From contig OZ253555.1 in NCBI GenBank assembly GCA_965262725.1, positions 1,376,001-1,440,000 of the forward strand: 64,000 bases of DNA, given 5' to 3'. The notes below the pieces were generated by a model that was not told the origin of the DNA, did no database searches, and saw only the letters and a program-made list of their open reading frames with translations. The translations under genes and the position numbers were made by a program. This DNA comes from Dehalococcoidia bacterium. GTDB lineage: Bacteria; Chloroflexota; Dehalococcoidia; UBA2979. Shown in pieces: positions 13,970 to 51,124 of this stretch; the first letter of the stretch is position 1, and each line of letters starts with the position of its first letter.

Positions 13970-14587
13970 CTAGTGTCCCGATTCAGGGATGCGCTCTAGA
14001 TATCCGGCGAGGTTGGTGTGTCCCGAAGTCGAAGGGCGGGTGACGTGATGACGTAACCGGTCTGGAGACATGCTCGTCGTTGCCAGCCGGTGCGAGTCCG
14101 GCACGGGTAACTGTCAGGAGGCCCGTTAGCAGGTCGGCGGCGCGGACGGGAAACGGTCCACGTCGAAGCCCGACGTCAAGAGCCCTATCAGGGGGAGCAA
14201 CCAAGCGGTCCGCAGCATCAAGCGAAGCCTGCCGCGTCGTTAACGGATAGTGGAGGAGCCGAGCCCGGCAATTCAGGGCGAAGGCCATGGACGAGGTGAA
14301 GATCCTGAATGCGCGTTGCGCTGCAGCCTCAAGGAACCTCCCGGCGTAAGGGGCGTGGAACGTTTGGAAGGTAGCGACGGGAACGGGAGAAGCCCTCCCC
14401 GGCCCGGCACCCTGCGAGATGGTGTCGGAGCGAGGTGCCCTATAACCGGTCAAAGCCGGGAAGTGGGCAGCTAGCCGGAAGGGTGACGGAGGGGGTCGTA
14501 GTACCGCTTGAGCCGGACGGACAACACAACCGCCGGTGATGGGAAGGACCCCTGCTTTGCTCACGCGTGGGGAGTAGGGATGAATCG

Positions 14588-15131
14588 GTGAGTGCCCAAG
14601 CGGCTAACTCCATCCAAGACAAGGTCCGAACACTACAACGCACGCTTTACCGGGCGGCCAAGGCCGACCCCAATAGACGCTTTCATGCGCTCTACGACAA
14701 GGTTTATCGCAGAGACATTCTGGAGCGCGCGTGGGAGCAGGTGCGTCGCAATCGCGGCGCAGCCGGTATCGACGGCGTCACGCTCGCCGAGGTCGAGCGC
14801 TACGGCGTGGAGCGCCTGCTGGATGAACTGGCCACGGAACTGAAGGAGGGAAGATACCGGGTGCAGCCGAGCCGCCGGGTCTGGATACCCAAGCCCGGTC
14901 GGTCGGAAGAGCGCCCGCTCTCGATTCCTTCGGTCCGCGACCGCATCGTGCAGGCGTCGCTGAAGCTCGTGACGGAGCCGGTCTTCGAGGCCGACTTCCT
15001 GCCATGCAGCTTCGGCTTCCGCCCGAAGCGTTCGGCCCATGACGCCCTGCAGGTCCTCATTGACGAGGCGTGGCGGGGCAGGCGGTGGGTAGTGGAGACG
15101 GACATCGCCTCGTGTTTCGAGTCGATACCGC
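14588..15131 (+). CDS. ltrA: Group II intron RT/maturase, exon 1 (RT0 to RT3)
   Basis: LERAWEQV..NRGAAGIDG, RPLSIPSVRDRIVQ, SFGFRP, DIASCFESIP; start GTG 14588 (or 14567). Confidence 0.9.
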
Positions 15132-15732
15132 GTGCGTCCGGAAGTCGAAGGGGTGGTGACGTGATGACGTGACCGGTCCGGAGACATGCTCGTTGCTGCC
15201 AGCCGGTGAGAGTCCGGCACGGGTAACTGTCAGGAGGCCCGTTAGCAGGTCGGCGGCGTGGACGGGAAACGGTCTGCGTCGAAGCCCGACGTCAAGAGCC
15301 CTATGAGGGGGAGCAAACGTGCGGTCCGCAGCATGACGCGAAGTCTGCCGCGCCGTGAGACTCGCCTGTCTATTGACAGGACCAAGGAGGAGCCGAGCCC
15401 GGGTGGTCAGGGCGAAGGCCATGGACGAGGTGAAGATCCTGGAATGCAGCCTCAAGAAACCTCCCGGCGTATGGGACGTGGAACGTACGGAAGGTAGCGA
15501 CGGGAACCGGAGAAGCCCTCCCCGGCCCGGCACCCTGTGAGAGGGCGTCGGAGCGAGGCGTCCTATAACCGGTCAGAGCCGGGAAGTGGACAGCCAGCCG
15601 GAAGGGTGGCGGAGGGGGTCGTAGTACCGCTGGAGCCGGACGGACAACATAACCGCCGGTGATGGGAAGGACCCCTACTTTGTCCGTGCATGTTGCTGGG
15701 GGTGTGGACTGGTGAGTGCCCCTCGGGGCTAG

Positions 15733-16940
15733 GGGTTCTCTGAACAGGTCGCCGCGTCGTTACTGGAGCACATGCACACTCCGATGACTATATGCGATCA
15801 TGGCACTCCTCCGGGAAAGGGGAGCGCTGCCATGCATCAGCCGACATTCGCGAGAGTCGAGTTCGAGCGGGATGGCTACAAGACGCGCCGCCAGAAGTTC
15901 CTCGAACGGCTGGATGGCCTCGTCCCGTGGCAGAGGTTCGAAGCAGCCATCGAGCCCCACTACCCGAAACCGGGCCGCGGGCGGAGGCCCTACCCGCTCT
16001 CCGTGATGCTGCGCATCCATACCGTGCAACTCTGCTACAACCTCAGCGACCCCGGCATGGAGGATCTGCTCCACGAGGCCGAGTCGGTGCGAGCCTTTTG
16101 CTTCCTCACGCTCTCCGAGCCCATCCCCGACGAGACGACGATCCTCAACTTCCGGCACCTGCTCGAGCGCCACTCCCTGGGTAGCAGGATCCTCCAACTC
16201 ATCAACGAGCACCTCACGAGCAAGGGATTGAAGCTGAGCGAGGGCAGCATCGTGGATGCGACCATCATCTCGGCGCCATCGTCGACGAAGAATCGCGGGC
16301 GGGCGCGGGACCCGGAGATGCATCAGACCAAGAAGGGGAAACAGTGGTTCTTCGGGATGAAGCTGCACATCGGCGCCGACAGGGATACTGGACTGGTCCA
16401 CAACTTCACGACCACGCCTGCGAACGTGTCGGACGTGTCTGAGACGCACCGCCTGCTGCACGGCGAGGAAGCCGAGGTCTACGGCGACGCCGGGTACCGG
16501 GGCGTGCAGAAGAGACCCGAGAACGCGGACTCCAGGGTCAAGGACTGGAACGTGGCGATGCGCCCGGGCCTCCGGCGTGCGCTCGACCCGGAGAGTCCTG
16601 AGGCCGTCGAGGAGAAGCGGAAGGCATCGGTGCGAGCGCTGGTGGAGCACCCGTTCTACAGCGTGAAGCGGCGCTTCGGCTACGCCAAGGTGCGGTACCG
16701 GGGTCTCTTCAAGAACCACGAGCGGTGTGCGGTCTTGCTGGGGTTCCACAACCTGCTCACCGCGAAGCCGCACCGTGCCTGACCGTGGGTGGAGTGCGCC
16801 CTCCCCGCCCCACACGGGGCGAGGAGGGGAGCCACAGGGGCCCGCGAGGGGGCGGATATGACCACTGTCATCGGGAATCCGCCTGAGAGCGCCTGACCGC
16901 GGCGAAACTGGGTCGCTAGACCCACCTGATCAGACTTGCC
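15733..16940 (+). mobile_element. IS5-family element (1208 bp) in domain IV of the inner intron
   Basis: CTAG duplicated (15729-32, 16941-44); single CTAG at the equivalent site in copy 2; imperfect terminal IRs. Confidence 0.95.
15832..16782 (+). CDS. IS5-family transposase
   Basis: IPDETTILNFRHLLE, IVDATII, DPEMHQTKKGKQWFFGMK, YGDAGY, VEHPF. Confidence 0.95.
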   Translation: MHQPTFARVEFERDGYKTRRQKFLERLDGLVPWQRFEAAIEPHYPKPGRGRRPYPLSVMLRIHTVQLCYNLSDPGMEDLLHEAESVRAFCFLTLSEPIPDETTILNFRHLLERHSLGSRILQLINEHLTSKGLKLSEGSIVDATIISAPSSTKNRGRARDPEMHQTKKGKQWFFGMKLHIGADRDTGLVHNFTTTPANVSDVSETHRLLHGEEAEVYGDAGYRGVQKRPENADSRVKDWNVAMRPGLRRALDPESPEAVEEKRKASVRALVEHPFYSVKRRFGYAKVRYRGLFKNHERCAVLLGFHNLLTAKPHRA

Positions 16941-17205
16941 CTAGCAACCACTTGGTAGGGTTCGAGGCTCTCCGCACATGCTGTACCGGCTGGCCAAGGC
17001 ACGACCCACGTTGTGGGGAGCGCTGCATGCCATCTGGTGAAGGGCATCGGTGAGCCGGATGAGGGAGAACCTCACGTCCGGTTCGATGTGGCAGGGGCTG
17101 GAGACGGACGCTGCTATGGCCGTGGAGTTGGGCACCACCGGGAAACCGGCTTGGAACTGATGCGCCACCGCCTACGGCTCGCACCGCGCCAGCCCCTGAC
17201 CCTAC

Positions 17206-17999
17206 ACGACCGTCTGATGACGGCCGTCGAGGAACGGATATGCGACCGCAATCTCCTGAAGCTGGTACGGGCGATGCTGCGTGCCGGTGTGATGGAGTCG
17301 GGGGTCGTGCAGCACAGCGCGACGGGTACGCCGCAGGGCGGGGTGATGTCCCCGCTGCTGGCCAATGTCTACCTGCACCGGTTGGACCGGGACTGGGAGG
17401 CGAAGGGTGATGGCGTGCTGGTGCGCTATGCGGATGACCTCGTGGTGCTCTGCCGGAGCCGGGAGGAAGCGGAGCGGGCGTTGGCCCTGCTGCGTGACCT
17501 GCTGGGTGAGCTCGGACTGGAGCTCAAGGCGGAGAAGACGCGCATCGTGCACCTGCGGGAGGGAGGCGAGGGGCTGGAGTTCCTCGGCTTCGAGCATCGC
17601 TGGGTACGTGCGAAGCGCAACAAGAATATCCAGTTCCTCGCACGCTGGCCCTCACGGCGAGCGATGCAGCGGGCGCGGGACCGCATCCGTGAAATCACGG
17701 CGCGGTTGCGTCTGCTGCTGAGTCCCCGGCAGGTCGTGGAGGAAGTCAATCGCTACCTCCGCGGCTGGATGAGCTACTTCCGCTACGGCAACTCGGCGAG
17801 GGCGTTCGACGTCCTGCACTGGTTTGCCATGTGGAGACTCAAACTCTGGCTGGGGAAGCGGTTGCGTTGGCGGCGACGCCATCGCGGGCACCCGTTTCCC
17901 GTCGCCGACCGTCTGGGGCTCATCTCGCTAGCTGGACAGCGCGTCGTGGCACCACGGCCATATCGACCGTGGCGGGGCACCCCGCATGCCGCCCGGTGA
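17206..17999 (+). CDS. ltrA: Group II intron RT/maturase, exon 2 (RT3-7 plus domain X, no endonuclease)
   Basis: GTPQGGVMSPLLANVYLH, RYADD, FLGF, LRGWMSYF. Confidence 0.92.
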
Positions 18000-18159
18000 A
18001 GGGCATCGGTGAGCCGGATGAGGGAAAACCTCACGTCCGGTTCGAGGCGGCAGGGGCTGGAGACGGACGATGCTACGGCTGTGGAGATGGGCGCCACCGG
18101 GAAACCGGCCTGGCAATATGCGCCACCGCCTACGGCTCGCACCGCGCCAGCCCCTGACC

Positions 18160-19212
18160 CTACTCAAGGATCTGGTCCGCGGACTTGTGCCAGATGAAGG
18201 GCCTCGGATTCTCGTTCCAGCTGGCGACCCACATCTCCACTGAGCGGATCAGATCAGGGACGCTATGGTGCGTGCCGCGCCGGAGCCACTTGCTGGTGAG
18301 CTCTGCAAACCAGCGCTCCACGAGGTTCATCCAGGAGCTGTAGGTCGGCGTGAAATGGAAGGTGAAGCGGGGATGGCGCTGGAGCCAGCGCTGGATGGCG
18401 GGCGTGCGGTGCGTGGAGACGTTGTCGAGCACGACATGCACCGCCAGCTCACGGGGAACGCTTTGGTCGATGAGGGCGAGGAACTGCTGGAACTCCCGAG
18501 CCCGGTGCCGGGGGGTCATCTCCGTGATCACGCATCCCGAGGCGACATCGAGCGCCGCGTAGAGGTTCGTCGTGCCGTGACGGATGTAGTCGTGCGTCTG
18601 GCGGGCGGGGACGCCGGGCATCATCGGCACCGTCGGCGCGGTGCGGTCGAGTGCCTGGATCTGGGTCTTCTCGTCCACGCACAGCACAACCGCCGCGTCG
18701 GGCGGGTTGAGATAGAGCCCGGCCACGTCGCGCACCTTGTCGATGAACTGCGGGTCGGGCGACAGCTTGAAGCTCTCCACGAGGCGCGGCTTCAGGCCGA
18801 AGGCGCGCCAGATCCTGGAGATCCCCGACTGCGACATCCCGAGCGCGGCTGCCATCGATCGGGTCGACCAGTGCGTCGCGTTGGGAGGCTGCTCCTCCAG
18901 CGTCGTGACGATCACCGCTTCCACCTGTGCATCGGCGATCGTGCGCGGCGCCCCGGGGCGCGGCTCATCCTGTAGCCCATCGAGCCGCCCCTGCGCAAAG
19001 CGCCGGCGCCACTTGCCGACGGTGACCGGATGGCAATCGAGCGCCGCGGCGATCGCTTTATTCGATGTCCCCTCGGCCGCTGCCAGGACGATGCGACAGC
19101 GCAGCGCCAGCGCCTGGGCCGATGTCGGCCGGCGCGCCCACCGCTCCAGCGTCTCACGCTCCTCGTCGCTCAGGACGATCGCGACCGTCGGCCGTCCGAT
19201 TCGGATGCTCAT
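18160..19212 (-). CDS. IS630 transposase, last ~15 aa lost through antisense intron insertion
   Basis: CVDEK, VLDN, WMNLVERWF; ends QILE* versus QILDNLAGYLERIPESGH* in the intact copy. Confidence 0.92.
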   Translation of the reverse strand: MSIRIGRPTVAIVLSDEERETLERWARRPTSAQALALRCRIVLAAAEGTSNKAIAAALDCHPVTVGKWRRRFAQGRLDGLQDEPRPGAPRTIADAQVEAVIVTTLEEQPPNATHWSTRSMAAALGMSQSGISRIWRAFGLKPRLVESFKLSPDPQFIDKVRDVAGLYLNPPDAAVVLCVDEKTQIQALDRTAPTVPMMPGVPARQTHDYIRHGTTNLYAALDVASGCVITEMTPRHRAREFQQFLALIDQSVPRELAVHVVLDNVSTHRTPAIQRWLQRHPRFTFHFTPTYSSWMNLVERWFAELTSKWLRRGTHHSVPDLIRSVEMWVASWNENPRPFIWHKSADQILE

Positions 19213-19297
19213 GACACTCCAGAGTCTGCCCCATGGGGCAAAACCCCGCTGTGCCACCATACCCGTTATCTGTCGCTATTACGAATCAGGACACTAG

Positions 19298-40428: not shown

Positions 40429-41602
40429 GTGTCCTGATTCGTAATAGCGACAGATAACGGGTATGGTGGCACAGCGGGGTTTTGCCCCATGGGGCAGACT
40501 CTGGAGTGTCATGAGCACCCGAATCGGACGGCCGACGGTCGCGATCGTCCTGAGCGACGAGGAGCGTGAGACGCTGGAGCGGTGGGCGCGCCGGCCGACA
40601 TCGGCCCAGGCGCTGGCGCTGCGCTGTCGCATCGTCCTGGCAGCGGCCGAGGGGACATCGAATAAAGCGATCGCCGCGGCGCTCGATTGCCATCCGGTCA
40701 CCGTCGGCAAGTGGCGCCGGCGCTTTGCGCAGGGGCGGCTCGATGGGCTACAGGATGAGCCGCGCCCCGGGGCGCCGCGCACGATCGCCGATGCACAGGT
40801 GGAAGCGGTGATCGTCACGACGCTGGAGGAGCAGCCTCCCAACGCGACGCACTGGTCGACCCGATCGATGGCAGCCGCGGTCGGGATGTCGCAGTCGGCG
40901 ATCTTCAGGATCTGGCGCGCCTTCGGCCTGAAGCCGCACCTCGTGGAGAGCTTCAAGCTGTCGCCCGACCCGCAGTTCATCGACAAGGTGCGCGACGTGG
41001 CCGGGCTCTATCTCAACCCGCCCGACGCGGCGGTTGTGCTGTGCGTGGACGAGAAGACCCAGATCCAGGCACTCGACCGCACCGCGCCGACGGTGCCGAT
41101 GATGCCCGGCGTCCCCGCCCGCCAGACGCACGACTACATCCGTCACGGCACGACGAACCTCTACGCGGCGCTCGATGTCGCCTCGGGATGCGTGATCACG
41201 GAGATGACCCCCCGGCACCGGGCTCGGGAGTTCCAGCAGTTCCTCGCCCTCATCGACCAAAGCGTTCCCCATGAGCTGGCGGTGCATGTCGTGCTCGACA
41301 ACGTCTCCACGCACCGCACGCCCGCCATCCAGCGCTGGCTCCAGCGCCATCCCCGCTTCACCTTCCATTTCACGCCGACCTACAGCTCCTGGATGAACCT
41401 CGTGGAGCGCTGGTTTGCAGAGCTCACCAGCAAGTGGCTCCGGCGCGGCACGCACCATAGCGTCCCTGATCTGATCCGCTCAGTGGAGATGTGGGTCGCC
41501 AGCTGGAACGAGAATCCGAGGCCCTTCATCTGGCACAAGTCCGCGGACCAGATCCTTGACAACCTCGCCGGATATCTAGAGCGCATCCCTGAATCGGGAC
41601 AC
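40429..41602 (+). mobile_element. IS630-family element, intact, intron-free allele
   Basis: CTAG at 40426-29 and 41602-05; terminal IRs tagtgtcc.gattc. Confidence 0.95.
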
Positions 41603-46428: not shown

Positions 46429-46684
46429 GCGGGGCTGACGTGATCGCGCCTAACGCTCATGCTGGTCGTGGAGGAGCGAGCATGTGTCGATCGCCAGGGT
46501 CATTGATCCACGCGTCGCCACGGTCATTAGACCACCCGGGACGCCGGTAGGCGGCTTGATATCAGTGAGCGTCTAGTGTCCTGAATTGGAAATGCGATTG
46601 AGATATCCGGTGAGGTTGGTGTGTCCCGAAGTCGAAGGGCGGGTGACGTGATGACGTAACCGGTCTGGAGACATGCTCGTCGTT

Positions 46685-48104
46685 GAGTAGCGTCCCAGCA
46701 AGTGGTGTCACAGGCGGGGAGACGGTCTCCGCAGGGGGACCTACTACCGACCACGGTGCCCATGCAGGTGGACGTAAGAGACCACCGCATCATCCTTCAC
46801 GAAGTTATGACGAACGTGGAGGAGGACGACGGTGGTCAGAGAGAGCGTGGACGTGTTGGAACTGCTCCGCAAGCAGGCATCGGGAGCTGACCTCGATTTC
46901 CTGCGCGAAGCGGTGGCTGTGCTCGCCGAGGCGGTCATGGACCAGGAGGTCTCGGCGCAGGTCGGCGCCGGCTACGGTGAGCGCAGCGAGATGCGCACCA
47001 CCCGGCGCAACGGCTACAGGCAAAGACGCTGGGACACGCGGGTGGGCAGCATCGACCTGCAGATCCCGAAGCTCCGCCAGGGGTCCTACTTCCCGGCGCT
47101 GCTCGAGCCCCGGCGCCGCTCAGAGCGCGCCCTGCTAGCCGTCGTCCAGCAGGCGTACGTGGAGGGCGTCTCCACACGCCGCGTCGACGACCTCGTGCGC
47201 TCGCTCGGCTGCGAGGGCATCTCCAAGAGCCAGGTCTCGCGTATCTGCTCGGAGCTCGACACGGTCGTCACAAGTTTCCTCGGCCGGCCCCTGGACTCCG
47301 GCCCCTACCGATACCTCTGGCTCGACGCGCTCACCCAGCGGGTGCGCGAGGAGGGCCGCATCGCCCAGGTGAGCGTCGTCGTCGCCACCGCGGTCAACGT
47401 GGAGGGGAAGCGCGAGGTGCTGGGCATCGACGTCGGTACCAGCGAGGACGGGGCCTTCTGGCTGGCATTTCTCCGCGGCCTCGTAGCACGAGGGCTCTCC
47501 GGCGTGGAGCTGGTGACCTCCGACGCCCACCAGGGCCTGAGGGGAGCGATCGCGACCGTCTTCGGCGGCGCCTCCTGGCAGCGCTGCCGTACCCACTTCA
47601 TGCGGAACCTGCTCACACGCGTGCCGAAGAGCGCCGAGGCGCTGGTGGCGACGACCGTGCGCACCATCTACCAGCAGCCCTCGGCCTCCGAGGTGCACGC
47701 CCAGCACACGCGGGTCGTGGAGCAGCTCGGTGCGCGCTTCCCGCAGGCCGCGGCGATGCTCGCCGACGCCGCGGAGGAGATCCTGGCGTTCACGGCCTTC
47801 CCGGTGGCGCACTGGCGTCAGGTCTGGTCGAACAACCCCCAGGAGCGCCTCAACAAGGAGATCCGCCGGCGCACCAACGTCGTCGGCATCTTCCCCAACC
47901 GCTCAGCGGTCATCCGGCTCATCGGTGCGGTGCTCTCCGAGCAGCACGACGAGTGGGCCGTGGGGCGGCGCTACATGACGATGATGACGCTGCTCGCCCC
48001 GCCGGGGAGTGAGCTCACGCCGGGCAAGGAGGTGCTGCTGCAGGCTGCCGGCTAAGAACTGATAAGGATGGTGCGCAGTGACACCACTTGCCGGGACGTG
48101 ACCC
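46685..48104 (+). mobile_element. IS256-family element in domain I of the outer intron
   Basis: 26-bp imperfect IRs (..cgtccc.gcaagtggtgtca); 6-8 bp direct repeat (c)gtcgtt(g); absent from copy 1. Confidence 0.92.
46832..48055 (+). CDS. IS256 transposase
   Basis: RNGYR, GVSTRRV, YLWLDA, SDAHQGL, WQRCRTH, ERLNKEIRRR. Confidence 0.95.
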   Translation: MVRESVDVLELLRKQASGADLDFLREAVAVLAEAVMDQEVSAQVGAGYGERSEMRTTRRNGYRQRRWDTRVGSIDLQIPKLRQGSYFPALLEPRRRSERALLAVVQQAYVEGVSTRRVDDLVRSLGCEGISKSQVSRICSELDTVVTSFLGRPLDSGPYRYLWLDALTQRVREEGRIAQVSVVVATAVNVEGKREVLGIDVGTSEDGAFWLAFLRGLVARGLSGVELVTSDAHQGLRGAIATVFGGASWQRCRTHFMRNLLTRVPKSAEALVATTVRTIYQQPSASEVHAQHTRVVEQLGARFPQAAAMLADAAEEILAFTAFPVAHWRQVWSNNPQERLNKEIRRRTNVVGIFPNRSAVIRLIGAVLSEQHDEWAVGRRYMTMMTLLAPPGSELTPGKEVLLQAAG

Positions 48105-48616
48105 GTCGTTGCCAGCCGGTGCGAGTCCGGCACGGGTAACTGTCAGGAGGCCCGTTAGCAGGTCGGCGGCGCGGACGGGAAACGGTCCACGTCGAAGCCC
48201 GACGTCAAGAGCCCTATCAGGGGGAGCAACCAAGCGGTCCGCAGCATCAAGCGAAGCCTGCCGCGTCGTTAACGGATAGTGGAGGAGCCGAGCCCGGCAA
48301 TTCAGGGCGAAGGCCATGGACGAGGTGAAGATCCTGAATGCGCGTTGCGCTGCAGCCTCAAGGAACCTCCCGGCGTAAGGGGCGTGGAACGTTTGGAAGG
48401 TAGCGACGGGAACGGGAGAAGCCCTCCCCGGCCCGGCACCCTGCGAGATGGTGTCGGAGCGAGGTGCCCTATAACCGGTCAAAGCCGGGAAGTGGGCAGC
48501 TAGCCGGAAGGGTGACGGAGGGGGTCGTAGTACCGCTTGAGCCGGACGGACAACACAACCGCCGGTGATGGGAAGGACCCCTGCTTTGCTCACGCGTGGG
48601 GAGTAGGGATGAATCG

Positions 48617-49160
48617 GTGAGTGCCCAAGCGGCTAACTCCATCCAAGACAAGGTCCGAACACTACAACGCACGCTTTACCGGGCGGCCAAGGCCGACCCC
48701 AATAGACGCTTTCATGCGCTCTACGACAAGGTTTATCGCAGAGACATTCTGGAGCGCGCGTGGGAGCAGGTGCGTCGCAATCGCGGCGCAGCCGGTATCG
48801 ACGGCGTCACGCTCGCCGAGGTCGAGCGCTACGGCGTGGAGCGCCTGCTGGATGAACTGGCCACGGAACTGAAGGAGGGAAGATACCGGGTGCAGCCGAG
48901 CCGCCGGGTCTGGATACCCAAGCCCGGTCGGTCGGAAGAGCGCCCGCTCTCGATTCCTTCGGTCCGCGACCGCATCGTGCAGGCGTCGCTGAAGCTCGTG
49001 ACGGAGCCGGTCTTCGAGGCCGACTTCCTGCCATGCAGCTTCGGCTTCCGCCCGAAGCGTTCGGCCCATGACGCCCTGCAGGTCCTCATTGACGAGGCGT
49101 GGCGGGGCAGGCGGTGGGTAGTGGAGACGGACATCGCCTCGTGTTTCGAGTCGATACCGC
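48617..49160 (+). CDS. ltrA: Group II intron RT, exon 1 (copy 2)
   Basis: Translation identical to 14588-15131. Confidence 0.9.
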
Positions 49161-50022
49161 GTGCGTCCGGAAGTCGAAGGGGTGGTGACGTGATGACGTG
49201 ACCGGTCCGGAGACATGCTCGTTGCTGCCAGCCGGTGAGAGTCCGGCACGGGTAACTGTCAGGAGGCCCGTTAGCAGGTCGGCGGCGTGGACGGGAAACG
49301 GTCTGCGTCGAAGCCCGACGTCAAGAGCCCTATGAGGGGGAGCAAACGTGCGGTCCGCAGCATGACGCGAAGTCTGCCGCGCCGTGAGACTCGCCTGTCT
49401 ATTGACAGGACCAAGGAGGAGCCGAGCCCGGGTGGTCAGGGCGAAGGCCATGGACGAGGTGAAGATCCTGGAATGCAGCCTCAAGAAACCTCCCGGCGTA
49501 TGGGACGTGGAACGTACGGAAGGTAGCGACGGGAACCGGAGAAGCCCTCCCCGGCCCGGCACCCTGTGAGAGGGCGTCGGAGCGAGGCGTCCTATAACCG
49601 GTCAGAGCCGGGAAGTGGACAGCCAGCCGGAAGGGTGGCGGAGGGGGTCGTAGTACCGCTGGAGCCGGACGGACAACATAACCGCCGGTGATGGGAAGGA
49701 CCCCTACTTTGTCCGTGCATGTTGCTGGGGGTGTGGACTGGTGAGTGCCCCTCGGGGCTAGCAACCACTTGGTAGGGTTCGAGGCTCTCCGCACATGCTG
49801 TACCGGCTGGCCAAGGCACGACCCACGTTGTGGGGAGCGCTGCATGCCATCTGGTGAAGGGCATCGGTGAGCCGGATGAGGGAGAACCTCACGTCCGGTT
49901 CGATGTGGCAGGGGCTGGAGACGGACGCTGCTATGGCCGTGGAGTTGGGCACCACCGGGAAACCGGCTTGGAACTGATGCGCCACCGCCTACGGCTCGCA
50001 CCGCGCCAGCCCCTGACCCTAC
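49161..50022 (+). mobile_element. ORF-less group II intron (862 nt), uninterrupted
   Basis: GUGCG...ccctAC with DV; removal gives S-I-P-H-D-R-L-M. Confidence 0.95.
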
Positions 50023-50816
50023 ACGACCGTCTGATGACGGCCGTCGAGGAACGGATATGCGACCGCAATCTCCTGAAGCTGGTACGGGCGATGCTGCGTG
50101 CCGGTGTGATGGAGTCGGGGGTCGTGCAGCACAGCGCGACGGGTACGCCGCAGGGCGGGGTGATGTCCCCGCTGCTGGCCAATGTCTACCTGCACCGGTT
50201 GGACCGGGACTGGGAGGCGAAGGGTGATGGCGTGCTGGTGCGCTATGCGGATGACCTCGTGGTGCTCTGCCGGAGCCGGGAGGAAGCGGAGCGGGCGTTG
50301 GCCCTGCTGCGTGACCTGCTGGGTGAGCTCGGACTGGAGCTCAAGGCGGAGAAGACGCGCATCGTGCACCTGCGGGAGGGAGGCGAGGGGCTGGAGTTCC
50401 TCGGCTTCGAGCATCGCTGGGTACGTGCGAAGCGCAACAAGAATATCCAGTTCCTCGCACGCTGGCCCTCACGGCGAGCGATGCAGCGGGCGCGGGACCG
50501 CATCCGTGAAATCACGGCGCGGTTGCGTCTGCTGCTGAGTCCCCGGCAGGTCGTGGAGGAAGTCAATCGCTACCTCCGCGGCTGGATGAGCTACTTCCGC
50601 TACGGCAACTCGGCGAGGGCGTTCGACGTCCTGCACTGGTTTGCCATGTGGAGACTCAAACTCTGGCTGGGGAAGCGGTTGCGTTGGCGGCGACGCCATC
50701 GCGGGCACCCGTTTCCCGTCGCCGACCGTCTGGGGCTCATCTCGCTAGCTGGACAGCGCGTCGTGGCACCACGGCCATATCGACCGTGGCGGGGCACCCC
50801 GCATGCCGCCCGGTGA
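50023..50816 (+). CDS. ltrA: Group II intron RT, exon 2 (copy 2)
   Basis: PQG, YADD and domain X identical to copy 1. Confidence 0.92.
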
Positions 50817-51124
50817 AGGGCATCGGTGAGCCGGATGAGGGAAAACCTCACGTCCGGTTCGAGGCGGCAGGGGCTGGAGACGGACGATGCTACGGCTGTG
50901 GAGATGGGCGCCACCGGGAAACCGGCCTGGCAATATGCGCCACCGCCTACGGCTCGCACCGCGCCAGCCCCTGACCCTACTCAAGGATCTGGTCGGTGGT
51001 CTTGTGCGAGATGAAGCGCATCCGGTGCTCGTTCCAGTTGCGACCCAAGCCTCCACTGGGCGGACCAAGCCTGCGAGGCTCGGTGCGATTGTTTTCAGCA
51101 TTTGCAACTCGGGACACTAGCGCG

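Follow-up and report, generated by a model that had tools for sequence, protein, structure and literature searches.

Two related group II introns of a Dehalococcoidia twintron are probably guided to separate DNA targets by their own exon-binding segments

Here, we describe a 64,000-nucleotide stretch of a Dehalococcoidia bacterium genome (Chloroflexota; GCA_965262725.1, contig OZ253555.1, positions 1,376,001 to 1,440,000; hereafter the window) where a group II intron lies inside the reverse transcriptase (RT) gene of another. We propose that this is very probably a bacterial group II twintron composed of two related IIB-type retroelements, each guided by RNA to its own target, the inner one presumably served by a helper RT that acts in trans. 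The proposal builds on what we observe directly, namely the anatomy of the locus, the exon pairings and their covariation, the spectrum of natural target sites, and a strand bias. The genome searched is the window's own, a single 3.67-Mb contig of 70.6% G+C. The main features of the locus, in window coordinates, are the following.

14016..18163, plus strand: outer group II intron (first copy in the window), a IIB-type ribozyme with an endonuclease-less RT/maturase open reading frame (ORF)
14567..15131, plus strand: 5' part of the RT ORF, with RT motifs up to ..ESIP (Pfam RVT_1; TIGR04416 positions 2-137, 172.4 bits)
15132..17205, plus strand: inner ORF-less group II intron inside the RT ORF, GUGCG start and CCCUAC end, 2074 nt including an insertion sequence (IS)
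17052..17205, plus strand: inner domains V and VI, from the fold, A17199 being the bulged branch point; the outer 3' end is 92.9% identical
17206..17999, plus strand: 3' part of the RT ORF, with RT motifs 4-7 and the maturase X domain (Pfam RVT_1 and GIIM; TIGR04416 positions 140-352, 214.5 bits)
18011-18043, plus strand: outer domain V, from the fold
18049-18159, plus strand: outer domain VI, about 110 nt, its basal helix carrying a bulged A (branch A 18157)
18160..19260, minus strand: IS630-family transposase ORF (Pfam DDE_3 and HTH domains), its 3' end cut by the antisense outer intron

The ends of the outer intron can be read in the sequence (GUGUG at 14016 and CCCUAC at 18163), and both boundaries are fixed because empty IS630 sites join the 5' exon straight to the 3' exon. 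The first 25 nt of the outer 3' exon have 26 matches in the genome: the intron end stands before 11 of them, the 5' exon stands directly before 14 (the empty sites), and 1 is unrelated. The Rfam model of the domain I core, RF02003 (group-II-D1D4-4; cut-off 49 bits), matches the outer intron at 14084-14220 with 95.3 bits and the inner intron at 15200-15336 with 102.8 bits, and the domain V/VI model, RF00029, matches the outer intron at 18009-18076 with 41.5 bits against a cut-off of 40. A second copy of the twintron in the window gives the same three Rfam matches near 48113, 49229, and 50826, and RF02003 is thus present in both introns of both copies. The RF00029 match aligns a pseudo-domain VI that ends at 18076, so that an automatic annotation would put the 3' splice site 87 nt away from its true place. 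The bulged branch A of the outer (18157) and inner (17199) introns lies 7 nt from the 3' end, and in the folds it is accompanied by compensatory changes in a sister intron family that we call fam3. Domain VI (18049-18159 in the outer intron, 17090-17201 in the inner) is unusually long and also holds a structured insertion above the branch-point helix.

Excision of 15132-17205 restores a single RT/maturase, since the two RT halves cover consecutive positions of TIGR04416, an NCBIfam model of 353 positions; jointly they span positions 2-352, with each half by itself below the 300-bit cut-off. In relatives, the RT is uninterrupted at the point where the inner intron is inserted. A Pfam scan found no DNA endonuclease domain in this RT, in which about 38 residues without any further Pfam domain follow GIIM, and we therefore class it as the endonuclease-less type. 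Its sequence relatives in the PDB include both IIC and CL RTs with comparable E-values, from 6e-27 to 2.5e-22, a range that does not discriminate between classes. Taken together, the canonical ends, the domain I core, domains V and VI, the RT and maturase domains, and the precise restoration of the frame identify a group II intron with a twintron layout.

Without its IS, the inner intron is 862 nt long and has no RT ORF, as in the IS-free example at 49161-50022 in the second window copy. Domains I-III, V, and VI are all retained in it, along with a beginning of domain IV that resembles the outer one, and its 5' part is 86% identical to that of the outer intron. Genome-wide, the inner intron has 28 5' ends that are 100% identical over 597 nt, and the outer intron has 12 copies, six of which are near-identical composite units of 2935-2936 nt while the rest have extra insertions. 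The fam3 family (77-79% identical) is represented by 3 copies and one fragment. Every one of the 15 RT genes concerned (12 outer and 3 fam3) is split by the inner intron at one and the same codon, and elsewhere this intron is found once as a head-to-tail tandem and, between unrelated flanks, at 12 ectopic sites. The tandem, at 549500-551223, consists of two inner introns in one RT gene, the upstream copy having the normal 5' exon and, as its 3' exon, the 5' end of the other intron, which indicates that contacts with the 5' exon suffice for insertion. A search with the 3' half of the RT found its closest relatives in Dehalococcoidia metagenome-assembled genomes (MAGs), with amino-acid identities of 79-91%. 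The genome also has about 13 uninterrupted copies of a distant group II RT family (36-40% identity), for example at 336424-337533, 1850342-1851451, and 2472058-2473167; a further copy of this family, near 1522477-1525777, holds an ectopic inner intron at 1524130.

How might two such similar introns come to occupy different targets? The segments in question are exon-binding sites (EBS) in the intron and intron-binding sites (IBS) in the exon, and at this locus they are placed as follows.

14001..14006, plus strand: outer IBS2, TATCCG, exon positions -15 to -10, complementary to 14244-49
14011..14015, plus strand: outer IBS1, GGTTG, which pairs with CAAUU through two G-U pairs among others
14244..14249, plus strand: outer EBS2, CGGAUA, unpaired and flanked by helices 4 and 5 in the d-arm of domain I
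14269..14273, plus strand: outer EBS1, CAAUU, a terminal loop closed by GCCC/GGGC
14349, plus strand: outer EBS3, A, the partner of exon position +1 (T at 18164)
15117..15123, plus strand: inner IBS2a candidate (T-15) and IBS2 (CGAGTC, -14 to -9)
15127..15131, plus strand: inner IBS1, ACCGC
15358..15364, plus strand: inner EBS2a candidate (A15358) and EBS2 (GACUCG, 15359-64)
15403..15407, plus strand: inner EBS1, GUGGU, with 56/60 pairs at 12 ectopic sites
15472, plus strand: inner EBS3, U, which pairs with +1 A at 17206

A sequence-only reading of the window had proposed that two variable segments in each intron are EBS1 and EBS2, each matched to the intron's own target. Its letters are present at all eight ranges, with the exon segments abutting the 5' splice sites (GTGTG at 14016 and GTGCG at 15132), and we retain its central assignment: the segments occupy canonical IIB positions and covary with the 5' exon, both across lineages and across natural insertion sites. 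The folding of domain I and the covariation of homologs, which it had named as checks, both agree with it. Some of its details are modified here. The five-base pairing of EBS1 stands for the four variable bases, but the fifth is an invariant U, and exon position -5 is paired in only 4 of 12 alignment rows. The inner EBS2 pairs with CGAGTC overall, although position -9 is without selection and is C in 3/12 ectopic sites. The suggestion that IBS2 lies unusually far upstream is set aside, because its location is only about one base beyond that of EcI5 and RmInt1 (-13 to -9) and hence ordinary (PMC8643678; PMC4075523). The outer IBS2 is intact in 11/12 occupied copies, the remaining copy having a T to G change at -13.

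The structure of domain I is based on an RNAalifold consensus of 8 relatives together with pair counts in a 12-sequence alignment. The d-arm is made of 8 helices and 36 pairs, for which 99.3% of the alignment cells are paired, as against 31-43% when the partners are slid, and 10/36 pairs are altered on both sides. The helix that closes the EBS1 loop (the d3 stem) is 100% paired, with 2 of its 4 pairs changed on both sides. EBS2 is an unpaired strand of a multi-branched loop, and it is followed by an extra hairpin in the inner intron and most relatives but not in the outer intron. The EBS segments thus lie in unpaired parts of domain I rather than being buried in helices, and the positions of EBS1 and EBS2 are those described for IIB introns (PMC8643678).

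Covariation was assessed in 11 lineages: the outer and inner introns, fam3, five loci from related genomes, and three actinobacterial plasmid introns. The search with the 3' half of the RT gave 6 loci, and the sample was widened by a genome search that matched 4/41 genomes (this one included) and by plasmid records; a fourth plasmid locus, L029, was excluded from the permutations as it occupies the same site as L028. For EBS1 and IBS1 at -4 to -1, cognate pairing reaches 43/44, compared with 19.8±4.3 (maximum 39) for permuted exons, and none of 100000 permutations reaches 43. The best EBS2 5-mers pair at 53/55 cognate positions, compared with 44.3±1.9 (maximum 52), again with 0/100000 permutations as high. 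Some of these relatives have unusual 5' ends, with GCGCG in place of GUGYG in the Streptomyces plasmid loci L028 (start 1357) and L029 (1354), and GUAUG in L032.

The 12 ectopic copies of the inner intron constitute a natural selection of targets. Their ligated flanks have long stop-free stretches on both strands (70% G+C), are unrelated to one another, and share only the IBS positions; insertion is base-precise and without target duplications. At these sites, EBS1 pairs at 56 of 60 positions, as listed above, whereas the genomic background over 20000 draws is 30±4 with a maximum of 46. EBS2 pairs at 50/72 in a fixed register (background 28.3±4, maximum 43) and at 61/72 when a shift of up to 2 bases is allowed (42.7±2.8, maximum 55). 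As a non-cognate control, the EBS1 of the outer intron and of fam3 pair at just 13 and 18 of the same 60 positions, and their EBS2 at 23 and 36 of 72. What variation there is among the sites is compatible with G-U pairing, with C or T facing G, and G or A facing U.

Two further contacts, missing from the earlier sequence-only account, come from outside EBS1 and EBS2. EBS3 sits in the coordination loop, which is flanked by helices 4 and 3, and its alignment column (353) is Watson-Crick with exon +1 in 9/9 lineages, being the sole column of 452 with at least 8 pairs. Exon +1 is read by EBS3 and not by a delta base adjacent to EBS1, as no other column, those beside EBS1 included, reaches 8/9. This reading of +1, like the unpaired location of EBS2, places the introns in subgroup IIB as opposed to IIA and IIC. 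Among the inner ectopic sites, +1 is A in 7/12. The second contact resembles the EBS2a-IBS2a pair of IIB1/IIB2 introns, in which an intron base 2 nt 5' of EBS2 faces the exon base just 5' of IBS2 (PMC8643678). In the 9 lineages with a perfect EBS2 5-mer, this rule, which was picked after inspection of the data, gives 7/9 Watson-Crick pairs (A-T 2, G-C 3, U-A 2) against 0/9 and 2/9 for the adjacent offsets, in what is a small sample. In addition, T occurs at -15 in 9/12 ectopic sites against an expected 15% (p about 5e-6), and contiguous EBS2 pairing does not account for the excess. These sequence patterns are suggestive of an EBS2a-like base that pairs with the exon base 5' of IBS2 in an endonuclease-less family, and such pairing with exon -15 would explain the T at the ectopic sites.

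The insertions also have a strand bias. The dnaA gene is at 0.478 Mb, and the cumulative GC skew peaks near 2.5 Mb with a plateau from 2.0 to 2.6 Mb. Outside a 2.4-2.7 Mb zone, the sense strand of the ectopic inner copies is on the lagging-strand template in 11/11 cases. For the IS630 sites, occupied ones are 10 co-oriented and 2 anti, and empty ones 5 and 9; a one-sided Fisher test gives p = 0.019, which becomes 0.026 when the terminus zone is left out. One empty homing site is in the window itself, at about 41535-41590 on the minus strand (genome position 1417559), with perfect outer IBS1 and IBS2 and opposed to replication. A preference for the lagging-strand template matches what is expected of an RT without endonuclease, and priming at the replication fork has been described for RmInt1 and other introns that have no endonuclease (PMC4075523; PMC8914252).

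Our model of the process is as follows. Each RNA would read its DNA target through four short segments on a common scaffold: EBS1, whose terminal loop has 4 variable bases and an invariant U, pairing with exon -1 to -4 (or -5); EBS2, 5-6 nt in a multi-branched loop, pairing with about -14 to -10; a base that resembles EBS2a, located 2 nt 5' of EBS2, pairing with the base just 5' of IBS2; and EBS3, a single coordination-loop base, pairing with exon +1. The outer intron would home to IS630-family transposase genes, at a fixed site close to their 3' end. As for the inner intron, it would be a derivative that lost its ORF, homing to the RT gene of its relatives between the codons of ..FESIP and H.., and also retrotransposing ectopically. 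The excised lariat would reverse-splice into the lagging-strand-template strand and be copied by the RT with the nascent strand as primer. The outer or fam3 RT, produced only once the inner intron has been spliced out, would both splice and mobilise the ORF-less intron in trans. That this RT serves the inner intron in trans we infer from the 86%/93% ribozyme identity, the kept start of domain IV, and precedent.

Could the guides be as described, with the inner intron served by a different RT family or by self-splicing, and the twintron spreading as one composite? The distant group II RT family with its 13 or so uninterrupted copies (36-40% identity) would be available for this, none of the 15 cognate RT genes in the genome remains uninterrupted, and the inner intron is already present in 12/12 outer copies, of which the six near-identical composites of 2935-2936 nt look as if they had moved as one. 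We nevertheless regard this as unlikely. Group II RTs usually act on close relatives, and the inner intron has retained the outer-like beginning of domain IV and is 86-93% identical to the outer ribozyme. Moreover, the inner intron moves by itself, being also present in the fam3 RT, in the head-to-tail tandem, and at the 12 ectopic sites.

Spread of the copies as DNA, through recombination, IS transposition, or duplication in the assembly, would make the exon complementarity a matter of common ancestry of the flanks. The genome is rich in IS, and all outer copies are inside IS630 elements that themselves transpose, yet this explanation is very improbable, given ectopic sites whose unrelated flanks have only the IBS positions in common and vary in a G-U-compatible way. 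Base-precise insertion without target duplication, the different orientations of occupied and empty IS630 sites with respect to replication, and the several diverged types of flank at occupied IS630 sites all disfavour it as well. So do data from another study. Assembled contigs that match the stretch come from runs of 12 studies, and while contigs cannot reveal splicing, starts or strands, those of run X4, from another study, extend beyond the last base of the inner intron to the 3' exons at two ectopic sites, confirming these two junctions independently. Finally, it is scarcely credible that the complementarity arose by chance and that the real exon-binding sites are elsewhere. Matches of 5-6 nt are common at 70% G+C, with a best-shift EBS2 background that is already 3.6 of 6, but the permutation and background tests rule out chance, and the positions are canonical for IIB.

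Several points weigh against the twintron model that we favour, or against parts of it. The lineages compared are kin, and the permutation figures thus overstate their independence. EBS2 has no clean assignment in 4/11 lineages: L003 and L012 have no extra hairpin, and their best EBS2 5-mers are A/U-rich and in shifted registers, while L005 and L032 have no perfect 5-mer, and L005 pairs just 3/5 at EBS1. The outer intron obeys the EBS2a rule only in an alternative register. The terminus was placed by GC skew alone, and one ectopic copy, at 2.536 Mb, is in the uncertain zone. With regard to splicing, three contigs from run X6 omit exactly 862 nt (1/4 runs; 90% likeness), but these skips may be empty alleles of relatives instead of spliced RNA, and the sole signal from an RNA library, a contig of 263 nt that matches inner domain I without a difference at a depth of 2.9, may be DNA carry-over. 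Both copies in the window hold IS insertions and may be dead, and the distant, uninterrupted RT copies are alternative candidates for the helper of the inner intron.

The IS insertions just mentioned, and the second copy, are placed as follows.

15732..16943, plus strand: IS5-family insertion of 1212 nt in domain IV of the inner intron, with a DDE transposase at 15772-16782 and a flanking CTA repeat
46619..50980, plus strand: second twintron copy, its domain I interrupted by an IS (46686-48103), with the inner intron at 49161-50022

The IS5-family element (Pfam DDE_Tnp_1 and DUF772) is missing from the second copy. In the first copy, it results in a stack of a mobile element in an intron in an intron in an IS. 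The same element (DDE_Tnp_1, 336 aa) occurs again from about 19296, adjoining the IS630 terminal repeat, and both insertions are at CTAG-like sites. In the second copy, the first 67 nt of the outer intron precede the IS, which is accompanied by a duplication of 8 bp (intron positions 60-67) and has a transposase ORF that ends near 48055. We considered whether this copy is a 5'-truncated outer intron and rejected it, as the IS at 46686-48103 sits in its domain I. Across the genome, Pfam Bac_DnaA has 38 matches, mostly in repeated ORFs of 350 or 565 aa that are presumably IstB-like or other AAA+ IS helpers; their number shows the IS richness of the genome.

To what extent has such a system been seen before? 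The phenomenon as such is established group II biology, with close precedents in Thermosynechococcus and Methanosarcina. In Thermosynechococcus elongatus, the EBS of the TeI3/TeI4 introns diverged into six families, and ORF-less introns are mobilised in trans (Mohr, Ghanem and Lambowitz 2010; PMC2882425). The likeness is extensive: one ancestral IIB intron gave rise to families that differ in EBS, ORF-less derivatives proliferate, and insertion is preferentially into IS elements and other introns, yielding twintrons in which the inner intron is identical and the outer variable, with an IS inside one intron (PMC2882425). The features of an ORF-less TeI3-like intron are present here too, namely no RT ORF, related RT introns in the genome, and 28 identical copies at distinct cognate sites. 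The sequence-only reading had likened the locus to a naturally retargeted targetron. What this likeness describes is a process documented in T. elongatus (PMC2882425). In targetrons (Ll.LtrB, EcI5, RmInt1; PMC4075523), one RT and ribozyme scaffold are likewise sent to new sites through EBS1, EBS2, and EBS3 (or delta); these are laboratory constructs, whereas the change seen here is natural and was accompanied by loss of the ORF.

There are also differences from the TeI introns, which are cyanobacterial, belong to IIB1, and encode an RT with an endonuclease domain (PMC2882425). According to the same text, the TeI inner intron lies between two start codons, so that RT is made without splicing, and 2/8 ORFs are continuous. 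Here, in contrast, the inner intron splits the catalytic region of the RT, 15/15 cognate ORFs are split, the RT is endonuclease-less, and the relatives are Dehalococcoidia MAGs. Methanosarcina introns home into the ORFs of related introns (review PMC4424553), and the nested introns of Methanosarcina acetivorans are archaeal, reach up to five levels, and have no coding flanks (PMC4424553), as compared with two nested levels here (three with the IS) and many ectopic copies.

With regard to mechanism, there is a likeness to RmInt1 of Sinorhizobium meliloti (class D, IIB3), which has an endonuclease-less RT, an IS630-family home, and a lagging-strand-template bias (PMC4075523), along with an IBS2 at -9 to -13, a T at -15 that is critical, and an EBS3/IBS3 of one base (PMC4075523; PMC8643678). 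The available parts of these two articles mention no ORF-less parasite in the RT gene of RmInt1 (PMC4075523; PMC8643678). The T at -15 of RmInt1 is ascribed there to a protein contact, and no EBS2a covariation is seen among its relatives (PMC8643678), whereas here a candidate RNA partner covaries in 7/9 lineages. The geometry of this possible pair is the same as that of EBS2a-IBS2a in EcI5 (Monachello et al. 2021; PMC8643678), with the EcI5 pair at -14 and ours at -14 to -16. That pair was reported in RT-encoding IIB1/IIB2 introns, with weak selection expected in introns that invade single-stranded DNA (PMC8643678); compared with them, the family here is endonuclease-less and strand-biased, and its ORF-less member would keep the pair.

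What sets the present system apart is the phylum, an inner intron that splits the catalytic part of all cognate RT genes, and a possible EBS2a pair in an endonuclease-less lineage. We tentatively raise the possibility, which we hold to be doubtful as yet, that the inner intron is a hyperparasite that has saturated all the helper RT genes of two families (15/15), within an endonuclease-less, lagging-strand-biased family that uses EBS2a-IBS2a. If this is true, helper RT would be made only after the parasite has been spliced out, which itself needs RT or self-splicing, and the result would be a self-limiting feedback on the intron population. Equally, EBS2a-IBS2a, so far documented only for IIB1/IIB2 introns, would extend to this family, with the 12 ectopic insertions serving as an in vivo selection of targets showing that the pair matters.

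In addition to these possibilities, the twintron would provide a natural example, outside the cyanobacteria and archaea, of group II introns escaping the saturation of their targets. The route of escape would be to mutate four guide segments on a fixed ribozyme, to shed the ORF, and to parasitise the RT gene of a relative. With its 28 identical copies spread over more than a dozen independent sites, the genome has a built-in data set on the per-position needs of EBS1, EBS2, EBS2a, and EBS3. In turn, this data set could guide the design of a compact, endonuclease-free scaffold for gene targeting, and could be used to test the need for EBS2a when the target is single-stranded DNA at the replication fork.

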